Source: Bacillota bacterium (lineage in GTDB: Bacteria > Bacillota > Limnochordia > Darwinibacteriales > DTU012). From it: a stretch of DNA of 41,332 bases. The position numbers were made by a program, and so were the translations under genes. The DNA is taken from the NCBI GenBank assembly GCA_012798795.1, contig JAAZMN010000129.1:1-41332 (forward strand). Direction: 5' to 3'. Shown here one piece after another: positions 10,869-41,332 of this stretch (the stretch's first letter is position 1; each line of letters opens with the position of its first letter). Under the pieces are notes generated by a model that saw only the letters and a list, made by a program, of their open reading frames with translations, made no database searches and was not told the origin of the DNA.

Positions 10869-11894
10869 ATGAGAACAGTATTTGAATGGGAACAACCTCT
10901 AGTTGAGCTGGAAGAAAAAATTCAAGAATTACGTAATTGTATTTATGATCAAGAGGTAGATTTCAGTGAAGAATTAACTGAATTAGAACGGAAAGCCGAT
11001 AAGTTGAGAAAAAGTATATATGAACGCTTAACTCCATGGCAGCGAGTAAGAATGGCCCGTCACCCGGATCGTCCAACAACTTTGGATTACATTGAACTTG
11101 TGTTCGATGATTTTATTGAGCTGCACGGAGATCGGACTTTTGGTGATGACAAAGCTGTTGTTGGAGGAATTGCGATTTTTGATCAAGAACCTGTCACTGT
11201 TATTGGTCCGCAAAAAGGTAAGGATACTAAAGAGAATATTGCCCGTAATTTCGGTTTGCCGCACCCAGAAGGTTACCGGAAAGCACTGCGGTTAATGAAA
11301 CAGGCAGAACACTTTCGGCGTCCAATTATTACTTTAATTGATGTGGTTGGAGCTTATCCCGGTATTGAAGCCGAACAGCGCGGTCAAGGATTAGTTATTG
11401 CCGAATGTATCGAACAAATGTCATTTCTTAAAGTTCCGATAATATGTGTGATAACCGGCGAAGGTGGAAGTGGCGGCGCGCTGGCCATTGGAGTGGGAGA
11501 TCGGATTTTAATGTTAGAGCATGCTTGGTACTCTGTTATTTCGCCGGAAATGTGTGCTAATATATTATGGAAAGATGTAGAGAGGGCTTCTGAGGCCGCT
11601 GAGTTATTAAAGTTAACTCCTACTGATCTGTTAAAATTTGAGATAATTGATGATATAATAACTGAGCCATTAGGGGGAGCACATAGAGACTATGAAGGTA
11701 TAGGTAGACAAGTGAAGGCATTTTTACGACGTTATTTATCGGAGATTCGAAAGATTTCGGTAGATCAATTAGTTGAGCAGAGATTAAAGAGGTTTCGTAA
11801 AATAGGACAATTTCAAGAAAAACAGTTAGTGGAACCAAAACATGTTAAATTAAATTCAGAAGTTGATGATGAAAGCGGTGGTAATAATGAGTAG
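10869..11894 (+). CDS. accA: Acetyl-CoA carboxylase carboxyltransferase alpha subunit
   Basis: LTPWQRVRMARHPDRPTTLDYI, GAYPGIEAEQRGQG, ITGEGGSGGALA. Directly follows accD. Confidence 0.95.
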   Translation: MRTVFEWEQPLVELEEKIQELRNCIYDQEVDFSEELTELERKADKLRKSIYERLTPWQRVRMARHPDRPTTLDYIELVFDDFIELHGDRTFGDDKAVVGGIAIFDQEPVTVIGPQKGKDTKENIARNFGLPHPEGYRKALRLMKQAEHFRRPIITLIDVVGAYPGIEAEQRGQGLVIAECIEQMSFLKVPIICVITGEGGSGGALAIGVGDRILMLEHAWYSVISPEMCANILWKDVERASEAAELLKLTPTDLLKFEIIDDIITEPLGGAHRDYEGIGRQVKAFLRRYLSEIRKISVDQLVEQRLKRFRKIGQFQEKQLVEPKHVKLNSEVDDESGGNNE

Positions 11895-12876
11895 ACGTAT
11901 TGGAGTCCTTACTAGTGGGGGAGATGCCCCGGGGATGAATGCGGCAATAAGAACAGTAGTAAGAACTGCTTTAAGCTTTAAAATGGAACCATTTGGAATT
12001 TATCGGGGTTATCACGGACTAATTAATGATGAGATCGAAAAATTAGTAAGCTCTTCTGTTTCCGGGATTATTCAACGCGGTGGTACTGTATTGAAAAGTG
12101 CCCGCTCGCAGGAATTTATGACAAAGCAGGGACTTGAGATGGCTGTCAATAATCTTAAGAAACATAAAATTGACTCAGTAGTGATAATTGGAGGCGATGG
12201 TTCTTTTCGGGGGGCATTATCTTTAATGAAGCATGGTATCAAGATAATCGGGATTCCTGCTACCATTGATAATGATATTCCCTGTACTGATTTTTCAATT
12301 GGGTTTGATACGGCTGTAAATACAGTGATGGATGCAGTTAATAAAATACGTGATACCGCCAGTTCACACGAACGAATTTATGTGGTAGAAGTAATGGGTC
12401 GTCATTCTGGTAATATCGCACTTTATTCCGGATTGGCGGTAGGAGCTGACTCGATTCTCATCCCTGAAGTCCCGTTTGAATTGGATCAGGTTTGTGAAAA
12501 AATACGGTTGGCTTATGAAGCTGGGAAGAATCACAATATTGTAGTAGTGGCAGAAGGAATAAGTTTGCCTTCAGATGATATACGCAATGTATCTTTTGGT
12601 GTTGGCAAATACATTGAAGAGCATACGGGTTACGAAACAAGAATTGTAATACTCGGTCATATTCAAAGGGGAGGTTCTCCTACTGTTAATGATCGTTTGT
12701 TGGCAAGCCGTTTGGCTTATCATGCGGTAAGTTTGATTCATCAGGGTAAATCAGGCAAAATGGTAGGAGAAGTCGATAAATTGATTAAGTCATGGGATTT
12801 ACAATATGCTTTGGCACAAGAACATACAATAAATATGGAGTACTATCGTTTAGCCAGCATATTATCATCTTTATAA
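11887..12876 (+). CDS. pfkA: ATP-dependent 6-phosphofructokinase
   Basis: MSRRIGVLTSGGDAPGMNAAIR, GGDGS, TIDNDI, MGRHSG. The ATG at 11887 overlaps the accA stop by 8 nt. The 11863 ORF-track start is an upstream extension. Confidence 0.93.
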   Translation: MSRRIGVLTSGGDAPGMNAAIRTVVRTALSFKMEPFGIYRGYHGLINDEIEKLVSSSVSGIIQRGGTVLKSARSQEFMTKQGLEMAVNNLKKHKIDSVVIIGGDGSFRGALSLMKHGIKIIGIPATIDNDIPCTDFSIGFDTAVNTVMDAVNKIRDTASSHERIYVVEVMGRHSGNIALYSGLAVGADSILIPEVPFELDQVCEKIRLAYEAGKNHNIVVVAEGISLPSDDIRNVSFGVGKYIEEHTGYETRIVILGHIQRGGSPTVNDRLLASRLAYHAVSLIHQGKSGKMVGEVDKLIKSWDLQYALAQEHTINMEYYRLASILSSL

Positions 12877-12899
12877 AATATTTATTTGGGAGTGGCGAA

Positions 12900-14312
12900 A
12901 TGATTCGTAAAACAAAGATTGTCTGTACAATAGGGCCTGCAAGTGATGGTCTGTTAGAGCAGTTAATAAATAGCGGAATGAATGTAGCTAGAATTAACAT
13001 GTCTCACGGTTCAATTAAAGAACATCTGCAGAGAATTAAAAACATACGTTCGGCCGCAGAAAAATGCACCAAAGATATAGGAATCTTACTGGATATTCAA
13101 GGCCCGAAGATTAGACTTGGTGAGGTTAAACCTGATCCTCTCATGGTTAATTCAGGTGAACAAATAGTTTTAACAATCAGTCCGTGTATAGGTAATGAGC
13201 AGAAGATTTATGTTAATTACCCAGATTTAATTAATGATGTTAAACCACAAGATGTAATTTATATAGACGACGGTTTAATAGAATTGAAAGTGGTTAAAAT
13301 CGATGGAGATGATGTTTACTGTAAAGTAGCCGTAGGTGGTCGATTAGGTTCGCGTAAAGGGGTAACTCTTCCCGGTATTGATGTGAAACTGCCGCCGCTG
13401 ACTGATGAGGATATTAAACATATTGAATTTGGAATTGCAAACGGTATTGATTTTGTGGCTGCGTCATTTGTGCGGAAAGCGAGTCATGTATTATTGGTAA
13501 AAGATATTATTAAAGACTTAAACTCGGATACTCCCGTCATCGCCAAAATCGAAAATGCGGAAGGTATTCGCAATATAGATGAAATAATCGCTGTCGCTGA
13601 CGGGGTTATGGTTGCTCGTGGAGATTTAGGGGTTGAGATTCCTCCCGAGGAGATACCGTTAGCACAAAAATTAATCATTAAAAAATGTAATGAACGAGGT
13701 ATTCCGGTTATTACGGCTACGCAGATGCTGGATTCTATGATGCGTAATCCTCGGGCTACCAGGGCTGAAATAACGGATGTTGCCAATGCAATTTTTGACG
13801 GTACCGATGCAGTCATGCTGTCGGGCGAGACTGCGATAGGAAAATATCCGATTAAGGCTGTGGAGTTAATGAACAAGATTGCAGTAAGAATAGAAGAATC
13901 CTTCGATTATATGGCAAGATTTGAAGTCGGACGCAAAAATAGGCGTCAAAGCATTGCTGACGCCATTTCTTTGGCAACATGCCAAACTGCACATGATCTT
14001 AATGTAAAAGCTATTTTATGTATTACTCAATCAGGAGCTACTGCCAGGGCGATTGCTAAATATCGGCCAGAAGCCCCGATTATTGCGGTATGCCCTCATC
14101 AGTCAGTTGTTAATAGGTTAATGCTTTCATGGGGTGTAAATCCTATTGTAGCTAGGCGACCGGAAAATACTGAACATCTAATAAATGCAGCAGTTGATGC
14201 TGTTAAGAATTTAAAATTAGTTAAGACCGGTGAAACAGTGGCTATTACTGCAGGTGTAAGAACAGGAATTCCCGGCAGCACAAACCTATTATTGGTTTCT
14301 GAAATAGAGTAA
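12900..14312 (+). CDS. pyk: Pyruvate kinase
   Basis: MIRKTKIVCTIGPAS start (ATG 12900, SD GGGAGTGG). NMSHG, MVARGDLGVEIP and MLSGETA motifs. The ORF-track start at 12792 overlaps pfkA and is rejected. Confidence 0.93.
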   Translation: MIRKTKIVCTIGPASDGLLEQLINSGMNVARINMSHGSIKEHLQRIKNIRSAAEKCTKDIGILLDIQGPKIRLGEVKPDPLMVNSGEQIVLTISPCIGNEQKIYVNYPDLINDVKPQDVIYIDDGLIELKVVKIDGDDVYCKVAVGGRLGSRKGVTLPGIDVKLPPLTDEDIKHIEFGIANGIDFVAASFVRKASHVLLVKDIIKDLNSDTPVIAKIENAEGIRNIDEIIAVADGVMVARGDLGVEIPPEEIPLAQKLIIKKCNERGIPVITATQMLDSMMRNPRATRAEITDVANAIFDGTDAVMLSGETAIGKYPIKAVELMNKIAVRIEESFDYMARFEVGRKNRRQSIADAISLATCQTAHDLNVKAILCITQSGATARAIAKYRPEAPIIAVCPHQSVVNRLMLSWGVNPIVARRPENTEHLINAAVDAVKNLKLVKTGETVAITAGVRTGIPGSTNLLLVSEIE

Positions 14313-16767: not shown

Positions 16768-16853
16768 TGGTGCCGAAGGAGGGAGTCGAACCCTCATGGG
16801 GCTAGCCCACACGATTTTGAGTCGTGCGTGTCTACCAATTCCACCACTTCGGC
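16768..16853 (-). tRNA. tRNA-Leu (anticodon CAA), class II with long variable arm, CCA encoded
   Basis: Hand-folded cloverleaf. Acceptor GCCGAAG/CTTCGGC. D-arm GTGG..ACAC. Anticodon stem CACGA/TCGTG with loop CTCAAAA. Long variable arm. T-arm GAGGG-TTCGACT-CCCTC. Discriminator A plus CCA. Confidence 0.93.
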
Positions 16854-34831: not shown

Positions 34832-34869
34832 AATACCACAGAAAGAGGATTTATTTGGTAAGGGGGATT

Positions 34870-35031
34870 ATGGTGAAACAAGAAAAGACTGAACATAAGC
34901 ATATTAAAACACTGACTAAATCTTCATTGACAAAAACTTTAGTTAGCGGTGGGTGTGGAGAGTGTCAAGCATCTTGTCAATCAGCTTGTAAGACCTCTTG
35001 TACAGTAGGGAATCAAGCTTGTGAGCGCTAA
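34870..35031 (+). CDS. SCIFF (six-cysteines-in-forty-five) ribosomal peptide precursor, 53 aa
   Basis: Not in the ORF track (too short). ATG 34870 follows AAGGGGG. Translation is MVKQEKTEHKHIKTLTKSSLTKTLVSGGCGECQASCQSACKTSCTVGNQACER. The KHIKTL leader and the GGCGECQxSCQSACKTSCTVxNQxCE core are the SCIFF family signature. It lies immediately upstream of its radical-SAM partner. Confidence 0.9.
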   Translation: MVKQEKTEHKHIKTLTKSSLTKTLVSGGCGECQASCQSACKTSCTVGNQACER

Positions 35032-35109: not shown

Positions 35110-36477
35110 GTGCTGGATAAAGAATGTGTGCACTGCTTTTCTCATAACCATCAATACTTCGTTGTAGACGGAAACTCCGGTTCTGTTCATTTATTAGATG
35201 AGTTAGCTTATCAGATGATAAAAGCTATTAAAGACGGATTAGAGTTTGATGAAACAGCAGTAATCAATCATTTGTCAAATGAGTATTCTCCTAGAAAAAT
35301 TAAAGAAGCTTTTGAGGAAATAACAGTCCTTGTAAAAGAAAATCTGCTTTTCAGCCCGGACTTTACTGAAATACCAAAGGAAATCGATTCTGTTGTAAAA
35401 GCGTTGTGCTTGAATGTTGCTCATGACTGTAATCTAAGATGTAAATACTGTTTTGCACAGACCGGAGATTTTGGTGGGAAAAGGGAATTGATGAGTTATG
35501 CTGTAGCCAAGAAAGCCGTTGATTTTTTGATAAATGCTTCGAAAAATCGACATCAACTGGAACTGGATTTTTTCGGTGGTGAACCATTACTTAACTTTGA
35601 AGTTGTTAAAAAAACTGTTCTTTACGGTGAAGAGCAAGCTAAAAAACACAATAAGAATATTCGTTTTACTATAACCACTAATGGAATTGGATTAACTAAA
35701 GCAATTCAAGATTTTTTGAATGAAAAAATGTATAATGTTGTTTTAAGTATTGACGGACGTCGGGAAGTAAATGATGCCGTAAGGCAGACTATTAATGGTG
35801 AAGGTTCAGTTCACGATGTTATTGTGCCTAAATATCAAGAGTTTGTTAAAGCTCGTAAAGGTAAGCAGTATTATGTGCGGGGAACATTTACTAAAAATAA
35901 TTTGGATTTCTGTGAAGACGTACTTTATTTAGCTGGATTAGGTTTTGATCAAATTTCCATGGAACCAGTTGTTGCTGATTCTGCATTGGATTATGCTTTA
36001 ACAGAAGCCGAATTGCCAACTATTTTTCATGAATATCATCGACTTGCAGATGAATTACTAGAATATTATCAGACGAAGAAATCATTTAATTTCTTTCATT
36101 TTAATGTTGAGTTAAAAAAAGGACCCTGTTTATATAAACGGATAGCCGGTTGTGGTGCCGGACATGAATACATTGCAGTGACACCAACTGGTGAATTGTA
36201 TCCTTGTCATCAGTTCATCGGTGATGAAAAATACAAAATCGGAGATGTATCGCAGGGAATTATTCGGCCTGAGCTCGGTGAACGGTTGAAACACGCCCAT
36301 GTGCTCAACAAGCCTACATGCCGCAAATGCTGGGCTAAATATTACTGCAGCGGTGGTTGTCATTTTAATAATCTCAAATATGGCGGTTCTTTATCTGATC
36401 CATACCTACTCGCGTGCGAAATGGAGCGGAAGCGTTTAGAGTGCAGTTTGTACATTTACAGCAGCCTTAACAATTAA
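35110..36477 (+). CDS. SCIFF radical SAM/SPASM maturase (thioether-forming, CteB/Tte1186-like)
   Basis: 455 aa. Radical SAM CNLRCKYC (CxxxCxxC). C-terminal SPASM cysteines (CGAGHEY..., CHQF, CRKCWAKYYCSGGCH). N-terminal VVDGNSGSVHLLDE RRE-like segment. GTG start 6 nt after GAGGTGA. Confidence 0.9.
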   Translation: MLDKECVHCFSHNHQYFVVDGNSGSVHLLDELAYQMIKAIKDGLEFDETAVINHLSNEYSPRKIKEAFEEITVLVKENLLFSPDFTEIPKEIDSVVKALCLNVAHDCNLRCKYCFAQTGDFGGKRELMSYAVAKKAVDFLINASKNRHQLELDFFGGEPLLNFEVVKKTVLYGEEQAKKHNKNIRFTITTNGIGLTKAIQDFLNEKMYNVVLSIDGRREVNDAVRQTINGEGSVHDVIVPKYQEFVKARKGKQYYVRGTFTKNNLDFCEDVLYLAGLGFDQISMEPVVADSALDYALTEAELPTIFHEYHRLADELLEYYQTKKSFNFFHFNVELKKGPCLYKRIAGCGAGHEYIAVTPTGELYPCHQFIGDEKYKIGDVSQGIIRPELGERLKHAHVLNKPTCRKCWAKYYCSGGCHFNNLKYGGSLSDPYLLACEMERKRLECSLYIYSSLNN

Positions 36478-36586
36478 AGGATATGGTATTATGCTGCAGT
36501 GGTCCAGCATAATGGTAATATTTTTCTATAAATTATTACATTAAGAAGGACTTCGCTCTTTAATCATAGAATATACTATTACGAAA

Positions 36587-36662
36587 AAGTTAGGGAACAA
36601 TGATCGATACTCATTAACTGGGCACTTTGAGTATGGGGAGTTAGTAGTGCAACCGACCACTT
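36587..36662 (+). promoter_or_regulatory. c-di-GMP-II (class II cyclic-di-GMP) riboswitch aptamer in the pilB leader
   Basis: GGGAACAATGAT...CTGGGCACTT...GAGTTAGTAGTGCAACCGACC contains the conserved blocks of the c-di-GMP-II class as I recall them from the crystallised Clostridium acetobutylicum aptamer. The internal helix is kept by different bases (ATACTCA/TGAGTAT here), which is covariation-like support. It ends about 10 nt before the pilB SD. Confidence 0.8.
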
Positions 36663-36684
36663 ATACCGTGTGAGGTGATGCGGT

Positions 36685-38382
36685 TTGGCACAAAGGAAAC
36701 GTCTGGGGGATATACTTATAGAAAGAGGATTACTTAACGAACAGCAGCTGCAAAAAGCCTTGGCTATGCAGCGGGATTCTGGCGAAAAGTTAGGTAATGC
36801 TTTAATTAAGCTTGGTTTTATAACCCCAGATAATTTAGCTGATGCTCTAAGTGTACATCTTGGATATCCAAGAGTTGATTTGAATCGTCATTATATTTCA
36901 ACTCCTGTGGTCAAAATGATACCAGAGGAGTTTTTAGCATCTCATGAGATATTTCCCCTTGATTTAAATAATAATGTAATGACAGTAGCTATGACGGACC
37001 CGTTAAACATTTTAGTAATAGATGAACTGCAGAGGATTACAGGTTATATAGTTAAGCCCGTAATAGCTACAAGTGATGAGATAAAAGCGGCGGTTAATCG
37101 TTCGCATGATATTATCTCTACTGCTCGGAAAGTCTTTGATGAATATACTGATGAAGATTCGGATCAATCTGATCAGAATCAGGAGGAGTATTTAGGTGAT
37201 GCGCCGGGAGTTCGTTTGGCCAACATAATTTTGGAACAAGCCGTTAGGGAGAAAGCCAGTGATATTCATTTGGAGCCTCAAGAGGAAGAGCTTGACGTCA
37301 GATTTAGGGTAGACGGTATTTTACGAAAAGTAATGACAGTTCCTAAAAGGCTGCGCAATGATGTAAATTCGCGGATCAAAATTATGAGTAATCTTGACAT
37401 TACTGAAAGGCGTCGTCCGCAGGATGGCAGAATTCAAACTAAGATAGGCGATTCTGAAGTTGATATGCGTATTTCAACGTTACCGACAATTCATGGTGAA
37501 AAAATTGTTGCACGTGTATTAAACAAATCTCACGGACCCTTAAGTATTAAAGAGTTTGGATTTGATGAAGATTCTAACGAAAAAATTCTTCGAATTCTAA
37601 ACATTTCTCAAGGTTTAATATTAGTAACCGGCCCGACAGGCAGTGGCAAGACAACCACTTTGTATGGATTTTTAAATCATCTAAATACAGTAGAAAAAAA
37701 CATTATTACAGTTGAAGACCCGGTTGAGTATCAATTAACTGGAATTAATCAGGTACAGATAAATCCAAAAATAGGATTAACTTTTGCTGCAGGATTGCGA
37801 AGCGTATTGCGCCAAGATCCGGATATTATTATGGTAGGTGAAATCAGAGATGATGAGACAGCAGAAATTGCAGTTCGTTCGGCTTTAACCGGGCATTTAG
37901 TTTTGAGTACTGTGCATACCAACAATACGGTTGCTACCATCAGCCGATTAATGAACATGAATGTTGATCCTTATTTAATTAGTGGGACTATATCTGCTAT
38001 AATTTCACAAAGATTAGTGCGAAAAATCTGTCCTGAATGTAAAGAAGAAGTTTTACTAACTGATCCTTTAGCTATTAGGTTTATTAAATCTCTGGGGGTT
38101 TCTGTCCCCAAAGTCGTATATCAAGGAAAAGGATGTCCGTTGTGCAAGGATTCAGGCTATTTAGGCAGAGTTCCGCTGGAAGAAGTCTTGATTGTCAATA
38201 GGCAGCTGCGCAAGGCAATTGATGCTAAAGCCAGTGAAGATGATATGCGGGAGATTGCAATCCGCAGTGGAATGGTACCGCTGCAGGTTAATGCTGTATT
38301 AAAATTGATTCAAGGAATTACAACTGTTTCTGAAGTGATTCGTACTGTATACAGTACAGATGAACAGGAGGCGTTGGATTGA
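36685..38382 (+). CDS. pilB: Type IV pilus assembly ATPase PilB (GspE family) with N-terminal MshEN domain
   Basis: 565 aa. MshEN/T2SSE_N N-terminus. Walker A GPTGSGKTTT, Asp box, Walker B, His box. Tetracysteine CPEC...CPLC. TTG start 7 nt after GAGGTG. Confidence 0.92.
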   Translation: MAQRKRLGDILIERGLLNEQQLQKALAMQRDSGEKLGNALIKLGFITPDNLADALSVHLGYPRVDLNRHYISTPVVKMIPEEFLASHEIFPLDLNNNVMTVAMTDPLNILVIDELQRITGYIVKPVIATSDEIKAAVNRSHDIISTARKVFDEYTDEDSDQSDQNQEEYLGDAPGVRLANIILEQAVREKASDIHLEPQEEELDVRFRVDGILRKVMTVPKRLRNDVNSRIKIMSNLDITERRRPQDGRIQTKIGDSEVDMRISTLPTIHGEKIVARVLNKSHGPLSIKEFGFDEDSNEKILRILNISQGLILVTGPTGSGKTTTLYGFLNHLNTVEKNIITVEDPVEYQLTGINQVQINPKIGLTFAAGLRSVLRQDPDIIMVGEIRDDETAEIAVRSALTGHLVLSTVHTNNTVATISRLMNMNVDPYLISGTISAIISQRLVRKICPECKEEVLLTDPLAIRFIKSLGVSVPKVVYQGKGCPLCKDSGYLGRVPLEEVLIVNRQLRKAIDAKASEDDMREIAIRSGMVPLQVNAVLKLIQGITTVSEVIRTVYSTDEQEALD

Positions 38383-39419
38383 AACCTGTCAGCCATATAC
38401 ATGAATTACTTGAAATTGCAATTGATCAACGTGCTTCGGATTTACATATTTCTCCGGGGATTCCTCCATATTTGCGAATTTTTGGGAAGGTTATTCCTCT
38501 AACAGCTTATGAGAAATTAGCACCAAATGAAATTGAAGTATTGATAAAACCAATAATAGATGCTGAGCAGCACAAAATTTTAAATAAACATGGCGAAGTG
38601 GATTTTTCCTATGGAGTGCGAGGCGTTGGCCGCTTTCGGTGCAGCGTATATCAGCAGCGGGGTTCGCTGTCAGCAGCCATTCGTGTAATTAATGCCAAAA
38701 TACATTCCTTACAGCAGTTGGGATTACCCAGTATTATCAAGGATATTGCCAGAAAAAAAGATGGACTTATTCTGGTTACCGGCCCGACCGGAAGTGGTAA
38801 ATCTACAACCTTAGCAGCTGTGATCAATTTAATTAATGAGGAGCGCCAAGGTGTAATTATTACTTTGGAGGATCCGATAGAGTATTTACACAGTCATAAA
38901 CGTTGTATTATTAATCAGCGCGAAGTAGGTACGGATACACGCAGCTTTGCTAATGGGCTTAGGGCAGCATTAAGAGCGGATCCGGATGTGATTTTAGTTG
39001 GTGAAATGCGAGATTTGGAGACAATAGCTACCGCCATAACTGCCGCTGAAACCGGACATCTTGTTTTATCAACCTTACATACACGAGGAGCTGCCAAGAC
39101 TATAGATCGAATAATTGATGCATTTCCTCCTGATAATCAACAGCAGATTAGAGTTCAATTATCAATGGTTTTAGAAGCAGTAATATCCCAGCAGCTGATT
39201 GTTAAAAAGGATGGAGACGGAATGGTGCCTGCGGTAGAAGTTATGCTGGGAACACCGGCAATTCGAAATTTAATTCGCGAAGGGAAAACGCATCAGATAA
39301 ATTCTGTAATTGAAACGGGAAAGAGATTTGGGATGAAGACTTTGACATCGTCCGTAAATGAATTAGTTTATGCGGATCAGATCAATTTAGAAGATGCTCA
39401 AATTTTTGGGTTTGATTAA
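38379..39419 (+). CDS. pilT: Twitching-motility (retraction) ATPase PilT
   Basis: 346 aa. ASDLHI, GPTGSGKSTT, DPIEY, AALRADPDVILVGEMRD, GHLVLSTLHT, AIRNLIREGK. The TTG start overlaps the pilB stop by 4 nt and GGAGG lies upstream. Confidence 0.9.
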   Translation: MKPVSHIHELLEIAIDQRASDLHISPGIPPYLRIFGKVIPLTAYEKLAPNEIEVLIKPIIDAEQHKILNKHGEVDFSYGVRGVGRFRCSVYQQRGSLSAAIRVINAKIHSLQQLGLPSIIKDIARKKDGLILVTGPTGSGKSTTLAAVINLINEERQGVIITLEDPIEYLHSHKRCIINQREVGTDTRSFANGLRAALRADPDVILVGEMRDLETIATAITAAETGHLVLSTLHTRGAAKTIDRIIDAFPPDNQQQIRVQLSMVLEAVISQQLIVKKDGDGMVPAVEVMLGTPAIRNLIREGKTHQINSVIETGKRFGMKTLTSSVNELVYADQINLEDAQIFGFD

Positions 39420-40645
39420 TGGTGGTGAAGCATATGATCCAATTTCAATATAAAGCTAGAGACAGACAAGGCAGAGAAGTAAACGGGACTATTGAAATGG
39501 ATACGAAGGAGCTTGCAGTTACGAGTTTGCGGGAGCAGGGTTATTATGTTACCGAGATAAAAGAAGTATCCAAACGCCGTTTGAGTAACATAGTTATATT
39601 TCAGTCCAGTAAAACCCTAAAAGCAAAAGATTTGGCTTTGTTTTGCCGTCAATTTGCTATTCAATTAGAAGCAGGTTTGTCTTTAACTGCATGTTTAGAG
39701 CTGCTGGAAGAACAGTCTGCAGATGAGATTCTTAAAAACGTTTTAAGAACAATTAGATTAGATGTAGCCAGCGGCATGACATTCACAAATGCAGTTGAAA
39801 AGCATAAAGAAATATTTCCGCATGAGTTTATTTACTTAATTTCAGCTGGAGAAATTGCCGGAGAACTGCCTGCTGTATTAGAGCAGTTGGCTGTTTACTA
39901 TGAAAGAGAAGATGAGCTGCGTAAAAAACTGTCCGAAGCTTTGATGTACCCGATTGTTATTGCTAGTATAGCTGTTATAGTTGTTATTGCACTAATATTT
40001 TTTGTTTTGCCGATGCTGATCAAAAACTTTTCCGCTTTTGGAGTGCAAACTCCCCGGATTACACAGGTAATATTAGACGCCAGAGACTTCTTAATCGACT
40101 TTTGGTATGTGTTTGTTGGATTTATTGTATTTTTTATTGTATTTATAAAATGGTATTTAAAGACTAAAAGAGGATGTTATCAAAAAGATCTGCTCAAGTT
40201 GAAACTGCCGATTATGGGCAAAATCAATCAGATGGTTATTTTTTCTCGAATTTCGCGAGTGTTAGGACTGCTGTTGGCCAGCGGAATTTCCATGGTAAAA
40301 AGTTTAGAAATTACAGAGCGGTTAATTACCAACGTTTGGATTCGGGACTCATTAAACGATTCAAGATTAGCTGTTGAAAAAGGGCAGGGATTGACTGAAC
40401 CGTTGAAAAAGAGTAATTTATTTCCAGCAATGTTTGTGCAGATGGTTGCAGTAGGCGAGGAAACCGGGAACTTAGAACAGACTTTAAAACATCTGTCTGA
40501 TTATTACGATAAGGAAGTAAATTTTACAGTTTCAGCATTTACAAAACTGCTTGAACCTGTAATGATGGTTGTACTGGCCATAGTAGTATTATTTGTTTTA
40601 GTATCGGTATATTTACCCATGATTCAAATGGTAACACAGCTGTAA
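39419..40645 (+). CDS. pilC: Type IV pilus platform protein PilC (GspF family)
   Basis: 408 aa. Two GspF repeats (FCRQFAIQLEAGLSL..., FSRISRVLGLLLASGISMVKSL...) and three TM segments. The ATG overlaps the pilT stop (TAATG). Alternative ATG at 39434. Confidence 0.9.
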   Translation: MVVKHMIQFQYKARDRQGREVNGTIEMDTKELAVTSLREQGYYVTEIKEVSKRRLSNIVIFQSSKTLKAKDLALFCRQFAIQLEAGLSLTACLELLEEQSADEILKNVLRTIRLDVASGMTFTNAVEKHKEIFPHEFIYLISAGEIAGELPAVLEQLAVYYEREDELRKKLSEALMYPIVIASIAVIVVIALIFFVLPMLIKNFSAFGVQTPRITQVILDARDFLIDFWYVFVGFIVFFIVFIKWYLKTKRGCYQKDLLKLKLPIMGKINQMVIFSRISRVLGLLLASGISMVKSLEITERLITNVWIRDSLNDSRLAVEKGQGLTEPLKKSNLFPAMFVQMVAVGEETGNLEQTLKHLSDYYDKEVNFTVSAFTKLLEPVMMVVLAIVVLFVLVSVYLPMIQMVTQL

Positions 40646-40661
40646 ACATTAAAGGGTGATA

Positions 40662-41332
40662 ATGTTGAAAAAATGCCTAGGCTTAGATATTGGCAGTGAA
40701 CAAATTAAATTGGTCCAACTGCAAAGAAAAGGTAGAAACAGCTATTTGGTAAGTTCGTGTCAGAAAATTAAGACGCCAGAAGGCAGTGTTGCCAATGGCA
40801 AAATTATGGATGTTGAGCGACTAAGAAAATGTCTTCAGCTGTTGATAAAAGGGTCTGGTATTACTACAGATAACGTAGTTATGGGTTTAGCGAGTCCTGA
40901 GATAATGATCAGAAAAACAGAATTTCCCTCCATGCCCGGAAAGGAATTGGCACAGGCAATTAGATTTGAGTTAAGTGACATCTTGATGTTGGATGATTCT
41001 AGTATTGAAGACATTGCATTTTCATATGAAGTTTTACATGCCGGAGAAAACCAACAAAAAGTTTTGGTGGTAGGATGCAGACGAGAATTAGTAGAGCCTT
41101 ATATAGATTTACTTAATAGTGTTGGTTTAGTTCCCTGGGTAATTGACATTGCTGCTTTTGCTCTTCCTAGAGTAATTGATACTAGAAATCGTATTTGCTT
41201 TGTAGATCTTGGTGCCGAGCAAACTGTAATTTATGTGGAAAAAAACATGACATATTCTGTTTATCGTATTTTGCCCTTTGGGGGTTCGTTAATTAATAAT
41301 GTAATTAAAGAAACATTTGGAGTTGACTCCTA
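40662..41332 (+). CDS. pilM: Type IV pilus assembly protein PilM (actin-like ATPase fold), 3' end outside the window
   Basis: Not in the ORF track because there is no stop in the window. The open frame reads MLKKCLGLDIGSEQIKLVQL...AIRFELSD...FVDLGAEQTVIYV... with no stop to base 41332. Typical PilM N-terminus and position after pilC. Confidence 0.8.
   Translation, partial: MLKKCLGLDIGSEQIKLVQLQRKGRNSYLVSSCQKIKTPEGSVANGKIMDVERLRKCLQLLIKGSGITTDNVVMGLASPEIMIRKTEFPSMPGKELAQAIRFELSDILMLDDSSIEDIAFSYEVLHAGENQQKVLVVGCRRELVEPYIDLLNSVGLVPWVIDIAAFALPRVIDTRNRICFVDLGAEQTVIYVEKNMTYSVYRILPFGGSLINNVIKETFGVDS

Follow-up and report, generated by a model that had tools for sequence, protein, structure and literature searches.

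Class II cyclic di-GMP (c-di-GMP) riboswitches make up the c-di-GMP-II class (Rfam family RF01786), for which Lee 2010 and Smith 2011 are reportedly the founding papers, and 3Q3Z is its structure from Clostridium acetobutylicum. The closest described system to the locus reported here is Cdi2_4 of Clostridioides difficile, a class II aptamer that leads the primary type IV pilus locus of a Gram-positive anaerobe and whose first regulated gene is the major pilin gene pilA1 (PMC6366702, PMC11656802). Four C. difficile class II switches, that of pilA1 among them, are ON switches by terminator logic (PMC6366702), and from its first description the class was seen as compatible with termination/antitermination or with translational control (PMC12564702). 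In the c-di-GMP-II/group I ribozyme tandem of C. difficile (CD3246), the bound class II aptamer finally turns translation ON, there through a ribosome-binding site (RBS) made by ligand-directed choice of the ribozyme splice site (PMC7583470, PMC9481103). Class II switches, their ON behaviour, their control of type IV pili in C. difficile and ligand-dependent activation of translation in the ribozyme tandem are all already known. Here we describe a class II c-di-GMP aptamer directly upstream of pilB, the type IV pilus extension ATPase gene, in a 41,332-nucleotide stretch of DNA from a Bacillota bacterium (contig JAAZMN010000129.1 of assembly GCA_012798795.1), the whole of which is called the window.

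The window element shares with Cdi2_4 its position at the head of a type IV pilus locus in a Gram-positive anaerobe and an architecture that reads as ON, in which the 3' strand of the aptamer competes with a downstream hairpin. It differs in that the first regulated gene is the ATPase gene pilB, not the major pilin gene, and in the lack of a U-tract terminator; the competing hairpin holds the Shine-Dalgarno (SD) sequence and the UUG start codon instead, and control is predicted to fall on translation initiation. The hosts also differ, an uncultured Darwinibacteriales-like Bacillota of anaerobic digesters here against a pathogen there. The ribozyme tandem is alike in its final effect on translation, whereas the window has no ribozyme and 20 nucleotides from aptamer to start codon. 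Particular to this locus are the host lineage, the ATPase gene in first place, an RBS-containing hairpin in place of a terminator, and the occurrence of both platforms among close orthologues. On balance, we consider it probable that a functional class II aptamer leads a pilB-pilT-pilC-pilM operon and that it acts, most likely, as a translational ON switch.

A search of the whole 41-kb window with Rfam 15 (cmscan at gathering thresholds) matched RF01786 at 36584-36665 of the forward strand with 66.8 bits against a gathering score of 53.5 (E 5.8e-13), over model positions 1-84 of 84 and without truncation; the sole further match was a tRNA. A first reading of the letters (hereafter the sequence-only reading) had recognized a class II c-di-GMP aptamer here by three blocks, GGGAACAAUGAU, CUGGGCACUU and GAGUUAGUAGUGCAACCGACC, and by an ATACTCA/TGAGTAT helix. 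The blocks are found at 36593-36658 and the helix at 36607-36613 and 36628-36634, where it forms part of P2; the sequence-only reading had set this helix beside AAUGGGU/ACUCAUU of the C. acetobutylicum aptamer. The class it had named is borne out by the Rfam score and by seven orthologous leaders that also pass the gathering score and covary. By family membership, 36584-36665 is a genuine class II c-di-GMP riboswitch aptamer, and we infer from its sequence that the RNA binds c-di-GMP. It agrees with 31 of the 34 highly conserved (upper-case) consensus positions. The exceptions are A12G, U30A and U34A, the last two being conserved loop U positions changed to A.

The window aptamer is like the rest of the family in its full-length match, kink-turn, UGGGCAC in the P2 loop, pseudoknot and AGUnGUGCAACCG core, and it departs from the family in the G at position 12 and in a short, interrupted outer P1. 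Within P1, a UA bulge parts the inner GG/CC from UGAA/UUCA, and the outer part is weak. A kink-turn has been reported for the class (structure 3Q3Z in PMC4316175; also PMC12564702), and at the level of sequence its partners here are GUU (36640-42) for the C-stem and G55 A56 (36638-39) for the tandem G.A pairs. The conserved UGGGCAC lies at 36619-25 within the P2 loop. The 3' core contains AGUnGUGCAACCG, and its GUGCAACCG is invariant in all eight leaders; judged by the layouts described below, this core is the switching sequence common to terminator-type and translational-type platforms.

A protein search with PilB returned homologues 58-92% identical from uncultured Bacillota, of which few sources are named (Ca. 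Wallacebacter, Ca. Darwinibacter and Limnochordia); these relatives belong to the MBA03/DTU010 group of anaerobic digesters (PMC12663870). We examined 12 contigs encoding PilB orthologues. In seven of them RF01786 was found above the gathering score directly upstream of pilB (57.9-65.6 bits), and the 66.8 bits of the window are the highest score of the eight leaders. Across these eight aptamers (the window with L014, L015, L017, L020, L024, L025 and L146), P2 is paired in 60 of 64 cells, with two to four pair types at seven of its eight positions. Inner P1 covaries too (for example G-C with A-U at model pairs 10-75 and 11-74), while outer P1 pairs poorly throughout. The pseudoknot is paired in all 48 cells, and L017 keeps its pairing through two changes, C40U and A41G, both as wobbles. 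The tandem kink-turn pairs G19.A56 and A20.G55 are invariant in the eight leaders, as is C15-G57. This pattern over P2, P1, pseudoknot and kink-turn is, by comparative reasoning, the signature of a fold under selection. At model position 12 (window 36595), the four terminator-type leaders all have A, and the translational-type aptamers have G, apart from a deletion in L014.

As judged from the region between aptamer and start codon, the eight leaders divide evenly between two platforms, four of the terminator type and four of the translational type. In L020, L024, L025 and L146, the 5' half of a terminator is made of the aptamer AACCG(G/A) core and the P1 3' strand, and a run of U6-U7 follows the hairpin. 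The terminator hairpins have RNAfold energies of -15.4 kcal/mol in L024, -15.6 in L025 and -28.2 in L020. These three rest on RNAfold and on reading of the sequence, and that of L146 was read by eye. The stems of L020 and L146 enclose an insert of about 60 nucleotides, and between their arms (AACCGGUCAC/GUGGUCGGUU in L020 and AACCGAUCAC/GUGAUCGGUU in L146) one has a G.U pair where the other has A-U. A simple terminator scanner picked up no leader terminator in these four contigs, because the closing A-U pairs consume two U of the tract or because the stems are interrupted or long-looped. Since the same strand cannot sit in the bound aptamer and in the terminator together, the ligand would favour read-through, and by architecture the four leaders are ON switches of the same terminator logic as Cdi2_4.

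In the translational-type leaders (the window, L014, L015 and L017), the aptamer ends about 20 nucleotides before a TTG start. The terminator scan found no hairpin with a T-tract between the aptamer and the pilB start of the window, and from AACCG to the start codon the window, L014 and L015 all lack four or more consecutive U; in L017 there is a U5 tract, but no hairpin comes ahead of it (-0.8 kcal/mol). In the window, the minimum free energy (MFE) fold of the leader includes a hairpin that encloses the SD and the UUG start, in which GUGC pairs with GCAC (36688-91, after the start), AACCG with CGGUU (36681-85) and CACUU with AGGUG (36673-77). The CGGUU segment ends at the first U of UUG. This AACCG...CGGUU-UG hairpin is laid out like the terminators of the relatives, with the U-tract cut to a UUU that is fused with the UUG start. 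L017 has no CGGUU segment, and its ACC-GA-CCAC pairs with the SD GUGG-GA-GGU instead.

Partition-function folds give a probability that the SD is unpaired in the free ensemble of 0.20 in the window, 0.01 in L014, 0.19 in L015 and 0.35 in L017, with 78%-100% of the SD pairing in the four leaders going to aptamer nucleotides. When the aptamer nucleotides were blocked to mimic the bound state, these values rose to 0.58, 0.42, 0.47 and 0.53, respectively. At low c-di-GMP, the aptamer 3' strand (GUGCAACCGACCACUU) would be expected to pair with the downstream RBS region through CACUU-AGGUG at the SD, AACCG-CGGUU, and GUGC-GCAC beyond the UUG start, so that SD and start codon are hidden. When c-di-GMP is high, this strand would be held in the pseudoknot, the ligand pocket and P1, and the freed SD and weak UUG start would allow PilB to be translated. 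The downstream genes pilT, pilC and pilM overlap or are closely spaced and would probably be translated after PilB.

Translational ON control is the best-supported account, which we hold with moderate confidence given that no terminator is present, that a hairpin holding the RBS takes its place, and that the orthologues are built as ON switches; we infer from these both the direction of control and its action on translation. The sequence-only reading had placed control on the ATPase and platform genes rather than on a pilin, across a gap of about 200 nucleotides and with no T-tract terminator between aptamer and start. Each of these points agrees with our analysis, in which the gap measures 207 nucleotides, the scan is empty with no U run of four or more, and pilB (T2SSE and MshEN domains), pilT, pilC and pilM follow with no pilin gene before pilB. 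Its description of the C. difficile pilA1 class II switch as ON through a terminator is in accord with PMC6366702. The predicted ON direction for the window is an addition to that account. Its proposal of translational control is the best-supported reading. Complementarity allows the aptamer 3' strand to pair with the SD and the start codon, and the relatives use this strand for a terminator. The sequestering hairpin draws weak support from its stability, with a z-score of -0.85 against shuffles in the window, and SD occlusion compared with shuffled aptamers lies at percentiles 3-41. The folding that it had suggested for detecting SD sequestration gave an MFE structure paired at 36647-36691 over the SD and start.

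Several observations weigh against sequestration by this hairpin. In isolation, the window hairpin has an energy of -12.9 kcal/mol (z -0.85), not significantly stabler than its dinucleotide shuffles, and the z-scores of the relatives (L014 -2.35, L015 -1.18, L017 -1.43) indicate a modest gain in stability. Shuffled aptamers give equal or lower SD accessibility in 9%, 9%, 3% and 41% of cases for the window, L014, L015 and L017, respectively, and some pairing of the C-rich 3' end of the aptamer with a G-rich SD is expected by chance. The anti-SD partner varies, being ACUU of the P1 3' strand in the window, CACUUU of the loop in L014 and L015, and ACC..C in L017. The sequestrator was compared in four closely related translational-type sequences, and with so few, conservation on the RBS side, including UUGGCAC, may be phylogenetic inertia. 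Finally, none of the four translational-type aptamers keeps the consensus A12, which is replaced by G or deleted.

The last point bears on whether the aptamer is degenerate or re-specified, so that it binds no c-di-GMP or another dinucleotide and the leader is constitutive or otherwise regulated. The changed A12, the two conserved loop U positions that are A, the poorly paired outer P1 and a report that some C. difficile c-di-GMP riboswitches are non-functional (PMC6366702) would all fit such an aptamer. We nevertheless regard it as very improbable, as the window score is the highest of the eight leaders and well over the gathering score, the pseudoknot, kink-turn and core nucleotides are all intact, and covariation kept down to 60% PilB identity argues for purifying selection on the fold. 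An OFF switch, in which a compact bound aptamer six nucleotides before the SD hinders the 30S subunit, or an extended P1 nears the RBS, and high c-di-GMP lowers PilB, is the reading to which we assign the least probability. The aptamer and SD are indeed close, and a P1 extension (UACG 36580-83 with CGUG 36667-70) can be drawn by eye, but as drawn it leaves the SD uncovered. Moreover, folding predicts the reverse, with greater pairing of the SD while the aptamer strand is free; the architecture of the orthologues is ON; and in Gram-positive cases known so far, c-di-GMP promotes type IV pili (PMC6366702, PMC11656802).

More weight, although still little, is due to a functional aptamer that controls transcription or the mRNA, through Rho or decay acting on untranslated early pilB or through weak termination at the hairpin-UUU. 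Four orthologues terminate transcription, all validated C. difficile class II switches act by termination (PMC6366702), and the window hairpin shares the layout of the orthologue terminators. However, only three U follow the hairpin, all of them part of the start codon and of its pairing, and at this site the terminator scan is empty. We therefore consider termination or decay as the primary step unlikely. Translational riboswitches are often coupled to Rho. PMC12810186 gives one example of a Rho-coupled translational riboswitch. Such coupling would be secondary to RBS occlusion, and thus would extend translational ON control rather than replace it; Rho or mRNA decay may contribute in this secondary way.

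The PilB protein itself carries a putative c-di-GMP site. Its residues 6-29 (RLGDILIERGLLNEQQLQKALAMQ) fit exactly the published 24-residue MshEN motif (Wang et al. 2016, PMC5013675), within an MshEN-type stretch of residues 6-58 (window 36700-36858). A five-residue spacer, RDSGE, is followed by a second motif-like stretch, KLGNALIKLGFITPDNLADALSVH, in which K replaces R and H replaces the terminal Q; this H lies outside even the relaxed published motif and is conserved in 13 of 13 orthologues examined. The N-terminal 151 residues match Vibrio cholerae MshEN (5HTL) at 1.2e-19 (phmmer) and also the c-di-GMP-binding domains of Thermus thermophilus PilF. Clostridium perfringens PilB2 and Myxococcus xanthus PilB bind c-di-GMP via their MshEN domain (PMC11656802). 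Compared with these extension ATPases of type IV pili and MSHA (MshE 5HTL, PilB2 and M. xanthus PilB), the window PilB is alike in its exact first motif and five-residue spacer and departs from the published motif in the second, a difference that concerns the protein and not the RNA. It is plausible that c-di-GMP acts at two levels here, on the mRNA of pilB and on PilB itself.

Taken further, the two platform types raise the possibility that orthologous pilB riboswitches swapped platforms within one narrow Bacillota lineage, from a terminator to an RBS sequestrator, and that the switch forms with MshEN a two-tier coherent c-di-GMP gate. We hold this combined view tentatively, as possible but short of probable. 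In such a swap, the U-tract of an AACCGG...CCGGUU-UUUU terminator would have collapsed onto the UUG start, with the SD in the descending strand, and the same hairpin would gate translation instead of transcription. In a two-tier gate, the RNA would set the amount of the pilus motor and the protein its activity.

The window element leaves the understanding of the riboswitch class unchanged. What it would add is a case outside C. difficile of type IV pili under c-di-GMP riboswitch control, in an abundant, uncultured lineage of anaerobic digesters related to Ca. Darwinibacteriales. Neither pili nor c-di-GMP signalling is known to have been described for that lineage, and both terms are absent from PMC12663870. 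The orthologues also provide a compact natural set of class II riboswitches with transcriptional or apparently translational platforms in front of the same gene, which could be used to study platform evolution, and the leader could supply a short (about 105 nucleotides) translational c-di-GMP ON sensor.

Table 1. Features of the pilB leader and operon (window coordinates), and RF01786 matches upstream of orthologous pilB genes.
Feature	Position	Strand	Description
c-di-GMP-II aptamer (RF01786)	36584..36665	+	full-length model match, 66.8 bits
P1 5' strand	36585..36594	+	pairs with 36657-36664 (alignment to model)
Kink-turn 5' side	36596..36603	+	C-stem AAC 36596-98, 3-nucleotide bulge AAU, G19 A20 36602-03
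P2 hairpin	36605..36636	+	CGAUACUCA (36605-13) pairs with UGAGUAUGG (36628-36)
Pseudoknot 5' strand GGGCAC	36620..36625	+	in P2 loop; complementary to GUGC (36647-50) and CC (36653-54)
Conserved 3' core AGUAGUGCAACCGACC	36643..36658	+	pseudoknot 3' strand, AA pair, inner P1 3' strand
Candidate sequestrator hairpin (ligand-free)	36647..36691	+	part of leader MFE; encloses SD and UUG start
Terminator-like hairpin and T-run	36487..36524	+	10 pairs, loop of 8, tail GTAATATTTT (terminator scan)
Shine-Dalgarno GAGGTG	36672..36677	+	6 nucleotides past last base of aptamer, 7 nucleotides before TTG
pilB, type IV pilus extension ATPase	36685..38382	+	565 amino acids, TTG start; T2SSE 2.4e-134, MshEN 6.5e-20
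pilT-like retraction ATPase	38379..39419	+	346 amino acids; T2SSE 1.8e-46; start overlaps pilB stop by 4 nucleotides
pilC platform protein	39419..40645	+	T2SSF 5.5e-55
pilM	40662..41332	+	PilM_2 4.3e-27; runs off window end
L014			RF01786 65.6 bits; PilB identity to window 92%
L015			RF01786 64.0 bits; PilB identity to window 78%
L017			RF01786 63.1 bits; PilB identity to window 75%
L025			RF01786 62.3 bits; PilB identity to window 60%
L024			RF01786 62.2 bits; PilB identity to window 62%
L020			RF01786 60.5 bits; PilB identity to window 72%
L146			RF01786 57.9 bits; PilB identity to window 73%

The five other orthologue contigs (L018, L019, L021, L022 and L023; PilB 66-73% identical) have no riboswitch, even in a sub-threshold Rfam search with E up to 1. 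As that search was empty, the absence is real and does not reflect a degraded aptamer. With seven orthologues carrying the element and five lacking it, it was gained or lost within the lineage. In four of these contigs, the riboswitch-free spacer between kbl and pilB is about 460 nucleotides long (L018:2540-3000, L019:2514-3000, L021:2546-3000 and L022:2537-3000) and holds small called open reading frames (ORFs) of 61-68 amino acids with no Pfam hit. In L023, a gene with GGDEF and HD-GYP-type (HD_5) domains lies at 1-1512, two genes upstream of pilB, and may be a local protein-based link to c-di-GMP. Beyond these orthologues, a PilB scan of a genome contig collection found only relatives of at most 44% identity, mainly Oscillospiraceae, none with an Rfam hit. 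A pattern, GTGCAACCG-N35-65-AARCGNYTNGG, which is too loose, gave at least 120 matches in metagenome contigs; among the matches listed, none was a pilB leader and none had a GGGCAC loop in a riboswitch-like context. A stricter pattern had no match in viral contigs.

The intergenic gap in which the leader lies runs from the end of the upstream ORF at 36477 to the TTG start at 36685, and the aptamer stands in sense orientation, ending 20 nucleotides upstream of that start. Upstream of the leader are tdh, kbl, the gene of a SCIFF (six-cysteines-in-forty-five) peptide and a radical-SAM/SPASM maturase gene ending at 36477. The hairpin and T-run at 36487-36524 look terminator-like and would close the upstream SCIFF-maturase unit, which suggests a separate promoter for the pilB leader within 36525-36583. 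That interval showed no convincing -35/-10 pair; TAGAAT at 36567-72 is common to the window and L014. The SD GAGGTG is conserved in L014 and L015, and L017 has GGGAGGT. An alternative upstream start of pilB was ruled out by an in-frame TGA at 36676-36678; together with a conserved RKRLGD motif from codon 4, this makes the TTG start secure, and the MshEN motif begins at residue 6. No pilin gene lies between the riboswitch and pilB, and the view of the operon ends inside pilM at the window edge.

An out-of-frame ATG abutting the SD opens a 19-codon ORF at 36678-36737, overlapping with the start of pilB; L015 has this ORF and L014 lacks it, and it is probably meaningless. On the other side of the leader, the SCIFF peptide gene (34855-35031) and the radical-SAM/SPASM maturase gene (35110-36477) adjoin the riboswitch upstream. 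In L014, L015, L017, L024 and L025, too, pilB is directly preceded by a radical-SAM maturase gene, and L025 is the only one of these relatives for which a SCIFF peptide gene was called.

No GGDEF or EAL genes were found in the window, the remainder of which is chromosomal housekeeping DNA (dnaE, accD/A, pfk, pyk, fur, an nrdJ-like gene, polA, fpg and coaE) with a G+C content of 38% for the window as a whole. The tRNA is a tRNA-Leu(CAA) at 16768-16853 on the reverse strand, between an ABC exporter gene and the fur-family gene. The mechanically called pyruvate kinase ORF (12792-14312) overlaps the end of pfk (11863-12876) by 85 nucleotides. Its Pfam PK domain starts at residue 38, so pyk probably begins further downstream than the ATG listed.

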